64,000 nt of DNA from Escherichia coli (lineage in GTDB: Bacteria; Pseudomonadota; Gammaproteobacteria; Enterobacterales; Enterobacteriaceae): assembly GCF_016026235.1 (NCBI RefSeq), contig NZ_CP065613.1; one strand, written 5' to 3'. Below, piece by piece: positions 49,149-61,873 of this stretch. Every line of letters begins with the position of its first letter. Within the stretch, counting starts at the first letter, position 1. Made by a program: the position numbers and the translations under genes. The notes below the pieces were generated by a model. That model searched no databases. It saw only the letters and a list, made by a program, of their open reading frames with translations, and was not told where the DNA came from.

Positions 49149-49996
49149 GTGAACGTCTGAGCATTACCCCGCTGGGGCCGTATATTGGCGCACAAATTTC
49201 GGGTGCCGACCTGACGCGCCCGTTAAGCGATAATCAGTTTGAACAGCTTTACCATGCGGTGCTGCGCCATCAGGTGGTGTTTCTGCGCGATCAAGCTATT
49301 ACACCGCTGCAGCAACGCGCGCTGGCCCAGCGTTTTGGCGAACTGCATATTCACCCTGTTTACCCTCATGCCGAAGGGGTTGACGAGATCATCGTGCTGG
49401 ATACCCATAACGATAATCCGCCAGATAACGACAACTGGCATACCGATGTGACATTTATTGAAACGCCACCCGCAGGGGCGATTCTGGCAGCGAAAGAGTT
49501 ACCTTCGACCGGCGGCGATACGCTCTGGACCAGCGGTATTGCGGCCTATGAGGCGCTCTCTGTTCCCTTCCGCCAACTGCTGAGCGGGCTGCGTGCGGAG
49601 CATGATTTTCGTAAATCGTTCCCGGAATACAAATACCGCAAAACAGAGGAGGAACATCAACCCTGGCGCGAGGCGGTCGCGAAAAACCCGCCGTTGCTAC
49701 ATCCGGTGGTGCGAACGCATCCGGTGAGCGGTAAACAGGCGCTGTTTGTGAATGAAGGCTTTACTACGCGAATTGTTGATGTGAGCGAGAAAGAGAGCGA
49801 AGCCTTGTTAAGTTTTTTGTTTGCCCATATCACCAAACCGGAGTTTCAGGTGCGCTGGCGCTGGCAACCAAATGATATTGCGATTTGGGATAACCGCGTG
49901 ACCCAGCACTATGCCAATGCCGATTACCTGCCACAGCGACGGATTATGCATCGGGCGACGATTCTTGGGGATAAACCGTTTTATCGGGCGGGGTAA
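49145..49996 (+). CDS. tauD: Taurine dioxygenase (Fe/2-oxoglutarate dependent), 283 aa
   Basis: TauD/TfdA family HxD...H triad (WHTDVTF). Confidence 0.95.
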
Positions 49997-50001
49997 TACG
50001 A

Positions 50002-50126
50002 GAGTGGACGGTCCCCTTGAGCGGCGAAAGAACGTTGATATAGATGAAGCGAGTGCGGACGGTCCACTCAAGCGGCGAAAGAACGGTGATATAGATGAAA
50101 CGAGTGCGGACGGTCCCCTCGCCCCC
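50002..50126. repeat. Tandem direct repeat, about 2.5 copies of a 49-51 bp unit, in the tauD-hemB convergent spacer
   Basis: gagtg(c)ggacggtcc..tcaagcggcgaaagaacg.tgatatagatgaa.c at 50002, 50051 and 50102. Confidence 0.8.
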
Positions 50127-50141
50127 TTGGGGTTAGGGTGA

Positions 50142-50180
50142 GGGGGAGTTCACTGTACTTTCAATAGGTTAACTCCCCCC
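50142..50180. terminator. GC-rich hairpin (GGGGGAGTT / AACTCCCCC) between convergent tauD and hemB; candidate bidirectional terminator
   Basis: 9-bp perfect stem with a 20-nt loop. Confidence 0.4.
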
Positions 50181-50199
50181 ATCGGAAGGCGTAAAAGTA

Positions 50200-51174
50200 T
50201 TAACGCAGAATCTTCTTCTCAGCCAGATCCAGCGCAAAGTAGCTGAAAATCAGATCCGCACCTGCACGCTTAATCGAACCTAAGCTTTCGAGCACCACTT
50301 TCTCTTCATCTATAGCACCCGCCAGCGCGGCGAACTTAATCATCGCGTACTCACCGCTCACCTGATACGCGCCAATCGGCAATTCAGTACGTTCACGCAG
50401 CTCACGCACGATGTCGAGGTACGCTCCAGCAGGTTTAACCATCAGGCAGTCTGCGCCCTGGGCTTCATCCAGCAGTGACTCACGAATCGCCTCACGACGG
50501 TTCATTGGGTTCATCTGATAGCTTTTGCGGTCGCCTTTTAATGCGCTTCCGGCAGCTTCACGGAACGGGCCATAAAAGGAGGAGGCGAACTTGGTCGAAT
50601 ACGACATAATCGCCGTATCTTTAAAGCCCGCAGCGTCCAGCGCCTGGCGAATTGCCTGTACCTGGCCGTCCATCGCGGCGGAAGGGGCGATGAAGTCTGC
50701 GCCTGCAGCAGCTGCAACCACGGCTTGCTTGCCTAAATTTTCCAGAGTCGCGTCGTTGTCGACGCCATGCTCGCACAGCACACCGCAGTGACCGTGAGAA
50801 GTGTATTCACAGAAACAAGTGTCTGACATGACGATCATTTCTGGCACAGTCTGCTTGCAGATGCGCGACATACGCGCCACCAGTCCATCTTCCCGCCAGG
50901 CGTCGCTGCCGGTTTCATCGGTATGGTGAGAGATGCCGAAAGTCATCACGGAACGAATACCGGCGTTGGCGATGCGTTCAATTTCGCGTGCCAGATGTTT
51001 CTCTGGAATGCGCATCACGCCTGGCATGGCTTCAACGGCTTTGTAGTCGTCAATTTCTTCTTCAACAAAGATCGGCAACACCAGGTCGTTAAGGCTAAGT
51101 GTTGTCTCTTCAAACATAGCGCGCAGCGCAGGAGATTTGCGCAGGCGACGAGGGCGTTGGATTAAGTCTGTCAT
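50200..51174 (-). CDS. hemB: Porphobilinogen synthase (delta-aminolevulinate dehydratase), 324 aa
   Basis: Start at [13 protein letters not shown]; ALAD family. Confidence 0.95.
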
Positions 51175-51699
51175 GGTCTGCCTGATGTTTGTGGAATTAA
51201 GGTGCACAGTATACCTGAAGCGGGGCAGGAGTGTTTTACGAAAGTTGTCGTGATGTTGACAAGAAGAGAATGAAAGAGAGACCAGGACATCTTTGTAATA
51301 GAAATAGCAATAATTTCATATTCACTGAAAATATTTTTAATTTTTATTTATAGCCATAGATTATTGTTTTTGGGGATTTGGTGACGTTTTCAAAAAGTGA
51401 ATAACTTAAAGTTCATTGCTTATTGATACATTATTTGTCTGTTTTAGTTGTTTTATATTTTCATGGTCTATGTTTTAAAATTAACGCTTTCATTAACGTA
51501 TTGAAATATTGTGTTTTTGTTATTTATTTCTGTGTGTGTGTTCACGTGCTTTATATATGTCCGCAATCGGACTTAGGGGAAAGAATAATTGAACCATTCC
51601 TCTATAACGCCGCATAATCGTCAACGCGAAACATAATATGTTTTCTATGCATTGATAATTGATGGATCAACTTATTACGTCCCTGAGGAGGGATGACAA

Positions 51700-54645
<2,946 letters not shown>

Positions 54646-54646
54646 A

Positions 54647-55335
<689 letters not shown>

Positions 55336-60034: not shown

Positions 60035-61129
60035 TTACATTGTGGTTTTCAATGCGTTATCCGCAGCGTGACGCTCCAGCGCCAGCTCAATCAAACGTGT
60101 GATCAGATCGGTGTAACCCAGACCGCTGGCTTGCCACAGCTTCGGATACATACTGATGTTGGTGAAGCCAGGCAGTGTGTTGATCTCGTTGATCACCACT
60201 TCGTTCTCTGGGGTTAAAAACACGTCTACACGCGCCATGCCTGCGCATCCCAACGTCTGATAAGCCTGAACGGCAATCGCCCGGATCTTATCGTTGATTT
60301 CTGGCGCAATGGCTGCCGGAACTACCACTTTCGCGCCATCTTCGTCAATGTACTTGGTGTCGTAGGCATAGAAATCGCTGGTGAGTACGATCTCGCCACA
60401 GGTGCTGGCTTGCGGATTGTCGTTGCCCAGAACTGCGCATTCGATCTCACGACCTTTGATCCCTTGCTCAACGATCACTTTATGATCGAACTCGAACGCC
60501 AGATCGACGGCAATTGCGTACTGTTCTTCACTGGTTACTTTGCTGACACCAACAGAAGAGCCCTGATTAGCCGGTTTTACAAACAGTGGTAACCCCAGTT
60601 TAGACTCCACTTCGGCAAAACTGATGTTGTGACGATTAGCGCGCGTCAGGGTAATAAATGGCGCAATGTTCAGCCCGGCATCGCGCAGCAGACGTTTGGT
60701 GACATCTTTATCCATACAGGCTGCTGAAGCCAGAACATCAGAACCTACAAACGGTAAATTGGCGACCCGCAGCATTCCCTGCAAGGAACCATCTTCGCCC
60801 AGCGTACCGTGGACAATCGGGAAAATGACATCCACCGTCGGCAACGGCTGACCGTTTTGCGCGTCGATAAGCTGATGCTCATGTTTACCTGGCACCTGCG
60901 CAAGGCTGGTCGCCGAAGGGCGCAACGCAATATGGGCAGGATCGTCTGCATTTAGCAGATAATTGCTGGCATCGCTGACGTGCCATTGCCCTTGTTTATC
61001 AATGCCCAGCAGCACAACGTCGAAGCGACTTTTATCAATGGCATCGACAATGTTTTTTGCCGATTGCAGAGACACTTCATGTTCCGCTGATTTACCACCA
61101 AAAACGATTCCTACCCGCAGTTTTTCCAT
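60035..61129 (-). CDS. ddlA: D-alanine--D-alanine ligase A (ATP-grasp), 364 aa
   Basis: N-terminus [27 protein letters not shown]; ATP-grasp fold. Confidence 0.95.
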
Positions 61130-61592
61130 CTTAAAAACCTATCCCGTCTAACACAAAGTGCATACATTACCACGACAAAACGGGGGATTCGCGGCCTTCT
61201 GAAAGATTGTTGCAATCTTCTGCTGACAAAGCGTGCAACGTACTGGTGAAGAAAGTGCGTTATCTCAAAGATGTGCGCAAGATCACAAAAATGATGAACG
61301 GGAAGCTAATTTATTCCTGGCTTAAATGGCCATGCGGTGAGTTTTTTTTCTCTTAATTATAAGTTAACGAAGAGAATATATTTCATAACTTTTATTTATA
61401 ATAAAGGTTGATAATTAAAAGCCTATATTTTGTGTGGGTAATTATTTAAATAAGAGAAACGTTTCGCTGGTAATCAAACAAAAAATATTTGCGCAAAGTA
61501 TTTCCTTTGTCATAAAAATAATACTTCCAGACACTATGAAGTTGTGAAACATAATGTTAACTTCTCCATACTTTGGATAAGGAAATACAGAC

Positions 61593-61853
61593 ATGAAAAA
61601 TCTCATTGCTGAGTTGTTATTTAAGCTTGCCCAAAAAGAAGAAGAGTCGAAAGAACTGTGTGCGCAGGTAGAAGCTTTGGAGATTATCGTCACTGCAATG
61701 CTTCGCAATATGGCGCAAAATGACCAACAACGGTTGATTGATCAGGTAGAGGGGGCGCTGTACGCGGTAAAGCCCGATGCCAGCATTCCTGACGACGATA
61801 CGGAGCTGCTGCGCGATTACGTAAAGAAGTTATTGAAGCATCCTCGTCAGTAA
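61593..61853 (+). CDS. iraP: Anti-adaptor protein IraP, 86 aa
   Basis: 86-aa coiled-coil ORF upstream of phoA. Confidence 0.9.
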
Positions 61854-61873
61854 AAAGTTAATCTTTTCAACAG

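Follow-up and report, generated by a model that had tools for sequence, protein, structure and literature searches.

The 525-bp intergenic region between hemB and yaiT in the Escherichia coli DNA analysed here (a stretch of 64,000 nucleotides, hereafter the window) is, with a probability of about 0.8, a regulatory region shared by the two genes, which contains an H-NS-silenced AT-rich core, a σ70 promoter of yaiT and an incidental (TG)5 tract. The region is already known as the H-NS-silenced upstream DNA of ehaB/upaC and is an ordinary regulatory spacer; for yaiT of this strain, we infer H-NS silencing by transfer from its orthologs. We propose that yaiT is most likely transcribed from a σ70 promoter at 51589-51618 with a leader of ~75 nt, that the AT-rich core of ~270 bp, rich in A/T tracts, would serve as a binding platform for H-NS upstream of this promoter, and that H-NS on the core would keep adhesin expression off in the laboratory. 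The (TG)5 tract would be an incidental microsatellite in the unconstrained part of the core, without a switching role, which probably arose by point substitution in one allele family and would occasionally lose a unit through slippage.

Genomic context and base composition of the hemB-yaiT spacer

The initial annotation had described about 520 bp of AT-rich DNA between divergent hemB and yaiT. The start codon of hemB (minus strand) ends at 51174 and the ATG of yaiT lies at 51700, and the intergenic region is therefore exactly 51175-51699, or 525 bp, with no strand assigned. Its G+C content is 33.1%, compared with 52.5% for the window, 54.4% for hemB, 46.8% for yaiT and 24% for the core at 51290-51560, so that the described AT-richness was borne out together with the boundaries. 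A scan of the whole 64-kb window placed the start of its lowest-GC 270-bp stretch (23.7%) at 51289, inside the spacer, and only 0.26% of the 525-bp stretches in the window are as AT-rich as the spacer. The AT-richness of the spacer is far beyond chance. The window has only two other places with 525-bp stretches of G+C ≤36%, at ~566-1305 and ~61023-61872.

Gene names used here were taken from the RefSeq annotation of homologous loci. The divergent neighbour hemB (50200-51174, minus strand), assigned from its ORF and this annotation, encodes porphobilinogen synthase, and the hemB protein has the same accession, WP_001295337.1, in most of the E. coli loci fetched. On the plus strand, an intact yaiT/ehaB/upaC autotransporter adhesin gene (51700-54624), identified by its ORF and domains, encodes a 974-aa protein with an EhaB-type passenger, an autotransporter beta-barrel and an autochaperone domain. 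Downstream lies iprA (formerly yaiV; 54712-55335, plus strand), a winged-helix regulator gene recognized by annotation, synteny and an HTH_46 domain (E = 6e-31). In the RefSeq annotation of homologous loci, the order of the locus is tauABCD, hemB (divergent), the autotransporter gene, iprA and convergent ampH. The autotransporter gene is called yaiT in K-12, where it is split by IS3, and is annotated as "autotransporter adhesin EhaB" in O157 and other strains, while CFT073 carries a 995-aa autotransporter, UpaC, in the same chromosomal position (hemB<>autotransporter-iprA-ampH). The passenger encoded by the window shares 81-91% identity with the proteins of O157, NY1601 and STEC1588, and 39% with CFT073 UpaC.

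The hemB<>yaiT spacer was found in 5,418 of the 5,426 complete E. coli genomes. In loci of other genera and species, iprA is located downstream of yaiT in all 14 that have enough downstream DNA, and the order yaiT-iprA-ampH is kept in all retrieved loci with enough downstream DNA; Buttiauxella also keeps this order, though hemB was not found upstream. At the other end of the spacer, the hemB-proximal block at 51175-51254 (minus strand) shows a conservation of 0.67-0.89 per column among 21 sequences from several genera, and from this column conservation it is presumed to hold the promoter and leader of hemB.

Several rearrangements were observed around the locus. The yaiT gene, intact in the window, carries a disrupting IS3 insertion in K-12 and strain EC14, and in FDAARGOS_943 the disrupting element is IS2. 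Among the genomes listed, the spacer of FDAARGOS_943 is 100% identical to that of the window, and eight genomes have spacers of at least 99% identity. TUM10008 lacks yaiT, iprA and most of the spacer, and has an IS1 in their place. Between tauD and hemB, a 51-bp unit is repeated 2.4 times in tandem (49998-50120, 87% matches). The two genes are 203 bp apart here and 152 bp apart in FDAARGOS_943; in most other strains the distance is 39 bp or ~105 bp.

A predicted σ70 promoter upstream of yaiT

A consensus scan and hexamer conservation point to a σ70 promoter of yaiT/ehaB, TTGAAC-18-CATAAT, at 51589-51618 on the plus strand. Both hexamers, TTGAAC and CATAAT, are invariant in 21 of 21 aligned sequences from about eight genera (Escherichia, Citrobacter, Pseudocitrobacter, Phytobacter, Kosakonia, Kluyvera and Enterobacter-like genomes), while the 18 bp between them vary freely, and Buttiauxella displays the same pattern of conserved hexamers. 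The -35 and -10 elements are hence conserved by selection at a distance of 18 bp, which falls within the 16-18 bp spacing of σ70 promoters. The position of the promoter places the transcription start near 51624-51626 and sets the leader at ~75 nt. Promoter and start site are thus predicted from phylogenetic footprinting; a search of the literature found no experimental transcription start-site data for the yaiT promoter. The whole spacer had been termed a long AT-rich leader in the initial annotation, and this wording needs correction: most of the 525 bp would be upstream regulatory DNA, with a predicted 5' UTR of only ~75 nt (51624-51699, plus strand), whereas the AT-richness stands.

The consensus promoter scan yielded 2 sites, compared with 2.9 expected. 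A promoter-like site at 51452-51481 was rejected: its sequence, within the hypervariable core, shows no conservation, and it is probably a spurious match of the sort common in AT-rich DNA.

The AT-rich core as a presumed H-NS binding platform

Within the spacer, a core at 51290-51558 (no strand assigned) was delimited by its G+C content, diversity and A/T tracts. It has a G+C content of 24% and a hypervariable sequence of constant composition, and its A/T tracts of at least 4 occur at 26.7 per kb, compared with 9.7 per kb in the window, a 2.7-fold difference. We presume this core to be a binding platform for H-NS.

Composition of this kind had been regarded in the initial annotation as typical of surface-protein promoters silenced by nucleoid proteins, a reading that gains support, by orthology and composition, from published work on related loci. 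A paper from the UPEC field names UpaC as one of the autotransporters repressed by H-NS, citing Allsopp et al. 2012 (Infect Immun 80:321). In Salmonella, yaiU is one of four model H-NS targets and is repressed by H-NS, and the yaiU promoter was bound by H-NS in EMSA and ITC (Kd 0.29-0.46 μM) and occupied in ChIP-qPCR. Our literature search found nothing on H-NS at yaiT or on H-NS ChIP-seq at hemB. Between the spacer of the window and that of CFT073 upaC, only 20 of 525 positions differ, 14 of them in the hemB-proximal 110 bp and 6 in the 410 bp nearest yaiT. Therefore, the H-NS result from CFT073 should transfer to the spacer of the window.

Loci of other species were retrieved with a degenerate signal-peptide pattern, which gave a set of 39 loci, Salmonella not being captured, and hemB could be located upstream in 29 of them. 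In these 29 loci of other genera and species, the spacer is 452-626 bp long with 31-36% G+C. Citrobacter, Kluyvera, Phytobacter, Kosakonia and others retain both length and G+C, while the core sequence is essentially unalignable between genera. Moreover, the core has a G+C content of 24-28% in 11 of 11 E. coli alleles compared despite ~35% sequence divergence. The conservation of composition and length, but not of sequence, would fit selection by a composition-reading silencer such as H-NS.

The variability of the core could also be explained by a lack of function, in which case the core would be a spacer drifting to an AT-biased mutational equilibrium and silencing, if any, would be incidental. 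Indeed, the core is hypervariable, with a nucleotide diversity (π) of 0.265 over 51350-51550 compared with 0.074 at hemB 4-fold sites (~3.6-fold), and the failure to align it between genera points in the same direction. The high-affinity H-NS motif TCGATAAATT is likewise absent from the spacer, with two matches only (51423 and 51657), each with 2 mismatches, and no local enrichment. However, H-NS reads AT-rich DNA by composition and shape without a strict motif, and the high-affinity nucleation motif is not obligatory for its binding. In addition, drift does not account for a length and a low G+C maintained across genera and in all E. coli alleles, nor for the published H-NS binding and repression at orthologous promoters. 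A core devoid of function is accordingly improbable, and the 24% G+C could partly reflect mutational bias in unconstrained DNA.

Diversity is unevenly distributed along the locus. The 150 bp adjoining yaiT have a π of 0.038; values rise to 0.3-0.6 across the passenger domain and fall to 0.032 at the 4-fold sites of the beta-barrel. The core (51350-51550) and the passenger (51800-53700) thus form separate hypervariable modules with a conserved segment of ~250 bp between them, and their alleles are uncorrelated (Spearman -0.02). We therefore rejected hitch-hiking with the passenger as a source of the divergence of the core. Correspondingly, in the window a core of the CFT073 type (98% identical) is combined with a passenger of the EhaB type, which shares 39% of its amino acids with UpaC and 81-91% with O157-type proteins. 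The core allele of O157 shares 90% identity with its counterpart in Escherichia sp. E1V33, compared with 67-74% for the other E. coli alleles. This closer relationship to E1V33 suggests that such alleles are old or introgressed.

The (TG)5 tract is nearly fixed in length

The (TG)5 tract lies on the plus strand at exactly 51531-51540, as first annotated. The probability of a dinucleotide run of at least five units is 0.0066 per 525 bp of the spacer's composition. With two such runs in the window and about one expected per 64 kb, the presence of the tract does not exceed chance expectation over the length scanned. Relative to the predicted start it spans about -94 to -85, with 48 bp separating it from the -35 hexamer downstream, and the spacer is least conserved in this part. 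In the same columns, other E. coli allele families carry TTTGTGTGTG (CFT073 and PA45B), TTTGTGCGTA (O157) and TTTGTGTGTT or GATGCGTGTT (K-12), all of unchanged length and with point substitutions only, and (TG)5 is absent from all other genera compared. Since the other alleles differ there without a change in length, the tract appears to be made and unmade by point substitutions.

To survey the tract in the population, 100-nt queries were compared with all 5,426 complete E. coli genomes, a design that counts one-unit changes and in which changes of two or more units are not separable. The (TG)5 context was found at ≥99% identity in 870 genomes. An otherwise identical (TG)6 query gave no match above 98% among the 5,426 genomes, and every (TG)6 match therefore requires a 2-nt gap. 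The (TG)4 query identified six genomes (four exact, two with one mismatch), which fall on at least three haplotype backgrounds. One-unit loss thus affects ~0.7% of carriers, unit gains were not found in the survey, and ~99.3% have the same length. The comparison of tract length between isolates, proposed along with the initial annotation, accordingly reveals a near-fixed length (870 genomes with five units, six with one fewer and none with one more); strict invariance does not hold, as rare one-unit losses occur. Two Swedish strains, 4/0 from a UTI and 4/1-1 from faeces, differ at this locus by a single TG unit in 7.7 kb of otherwise identical sequence. Their names suggest that they came from the same patient, and the difference may represent within-host slippage or a difference between assemblies. 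Slippage at the tract is real but rare, which is ordinary for a short microsatellite and unlike a contingency locus.

As a slipped-strand switch, the tract would gain or lose TG units and thereby alter the phasing or spacing of promoter elements and toggle adhesin expression. Polymorphism in unit number does exist, both as the (TG)4 variant, seen in six genomes of at least three haplotype backgrounds, and between 4/0 and 4/1-1, and yaiT encodes a surface adhesin, a class that is often phase-varied. However, the tract has only 5 units, compared with ~7 or more typical of a hypermutable dinucleotide tract, and is positioned outside both the -35/-10 spacer (51589-51618) and the reading frame (ATG at 51700), 48 bp from the nearer promoter hexamer. 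Frequent variation in unit number among related isolates was not observed, with ~99.3% of the genomes that have the context sharing one length and none carrying an extra unit. In addition, the tract occupies the least conserved part of the spacer and is removed by point substitutions in other E. coli families, CFT073 included, and in all other genera. These data largely refute a slipped-strand switch, which we consider highly improbable. Phase variation had already been judged unlikely from the shortness of the tract, and this judgement is strengthened by its position outside the conserved promoter, its loss in other allele families and its almost fixed length. As one-unit losses do occur, an effect of the tract on expression is formally possible.

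Least credible of all is an unannotated small RNA or small protein gene hidden in the spacer, which is long for an E. coli intergenic region, contains mechanical ORFs of 32-64 codons and was flagged for a terminator-like hairpin at 51532-51549, whereas an Rfam scan of 49900-52200 with E up to 1 returned two chance-level matches, both outside the spacer, no feature is annotated inside it in MG1655 and the other annotated genomes examined, its ORFs fall in the hypervariable core, and the hairpin was rejected because its stem, which is not conserved, depends on G-T pairing contributed by the TG tract.

A conserved palindrome and leader

Between the core and the promoter, a palindrome, GTCCG-N4-CGGAC (GTCCGCAATCGGAC), occupies 51559-51572 (no strand assigned), 16 bp upstream of the -35 hexamer, with its centre at ~-59 relative to the predicted start. 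No other such site occurs in the window, and the conservation of the palindrome in about eight genera makes it a candidate transcription-factor site. Variants of the palindrome break one half only, which fits a protein site and not an RNA stem. IprA is a speculative candidate for its regulator. IprA has been reported to influence fimbrial expression in Salmonella. It is also a fast-evolving protein, with 39-76% identity between genera compared with 80-92% for ampH.

In the predicted 5' UTR, the block at 51680-51702 (TCCCTGAGGAGGGATGACAAATG) varies little or not at all between genera. Two hairpins are predicted in the leader. One, CGUCCCU/AGGGAUG (stems at 51678-51684 and 51689-51695), can hold the Shine-Dalgarno sequence, which is overlapped by AGGGAUGA at 51689-51696 with its GGA motif (51691-51693); the other, smaller one (51659-51670) would present GGA (51664-51666) in the loop of a UUGA/UCAA stem. 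Both GGA motifs of the leader are conserved across genera. The minimum free energy of the leader is -22.1 kcal/mol (z = -1.74, single sequence), and RNAalifold predicts a structure of 16 pairs with 0 compensatory changes, in the pairs around the GGA motifs as elsewhere. As RNAalifold offers no compensatory support, the RNA structure of the leader is put forward as a prediction. The two GGA motifs resemble a pair of CsrA sites, which we mention as an idea only, and the leader could be a target of CsrA or of an sRNA. The leader also turned up in a 2-kb contig binned as a Veillonella MAG, which begins with an enterobacterial yaiT leader and start codon and is probably a binning contaminant.

A broader proposal would be that the palindrome with its regulator and the invariant leader form a conserved, specific layer of control atop H-NS for EhaB/UpaC/SeaB across Enterobacteriaceae, and that the core alleles are ancient, shared between species and recombine independently of the passenger alleles. 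We offer this proposal tentatively and regard it as possible, though rather doubtful.

Discussion

Our results uphold the view that the long AT-rich DNA preceding this surface adhesin gene is probably a silenced promoter region, and in this respect add little beyond a tidy annotation. They also indicate that a dinucleotide run of 5 units should not be taken for a phase-variation switch. For the regulation of EhaB/UpaC/SeaB, the leads are the footprinted promoter, the conserved palindrome, the invariant leader and the independent shuffling of upstream and passenger alleles. Modest as they are, these by-products offer those who study adhesin regulation concrete sites for mutation and a reason to consider IprA and CsrA.

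The upaC region of CFT073 is the closest known counterpart. It lies at the same chromosomal locus and has a spacer of the same length (525 bp), and UpaC is reported to be repressed by H-NS. In contrast, TTTGTGTGTG replaces (TG)5 in CFT073, with a G-to-T change at 51532, and the gene in the window has an EhaB-type passenger with 39% identity to UpaC. In Salmonella Typhimurium, yaiU (seaB) is the positional ortholog, which likewise has a divergent hemB and is both bound and repressed by H-NS; the correspondence considered here is one of position.

The diversity of the core finds a parallel in the regulatory switching of E. coli intergenic alleles through homologous recombination, reportedly described by Oren and colleagues in 2014. 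Unlike in that system, the allele shuffling at the locus in the window is known from sequence and is descriptive only, but deeply divergent promoter-upstream alleles are here, too, shuffled independently of the alleles of the flanking gene. For the (TG)5 tract, the comparison is with the hifA/hifB switch of Haemophilus influenzae, in which a (TA)n repeat of ~9-11 units lies between the -35 and -10 elements and varies freely between isolates. Both systems have a dinucleotide repeat upstream of an adhesin gene. In contrast to the repeat of hifA/hifB, the tract in the window has 5 units and hardly varies in length, and 48 bp separate it from the -35 hexamer downstream.
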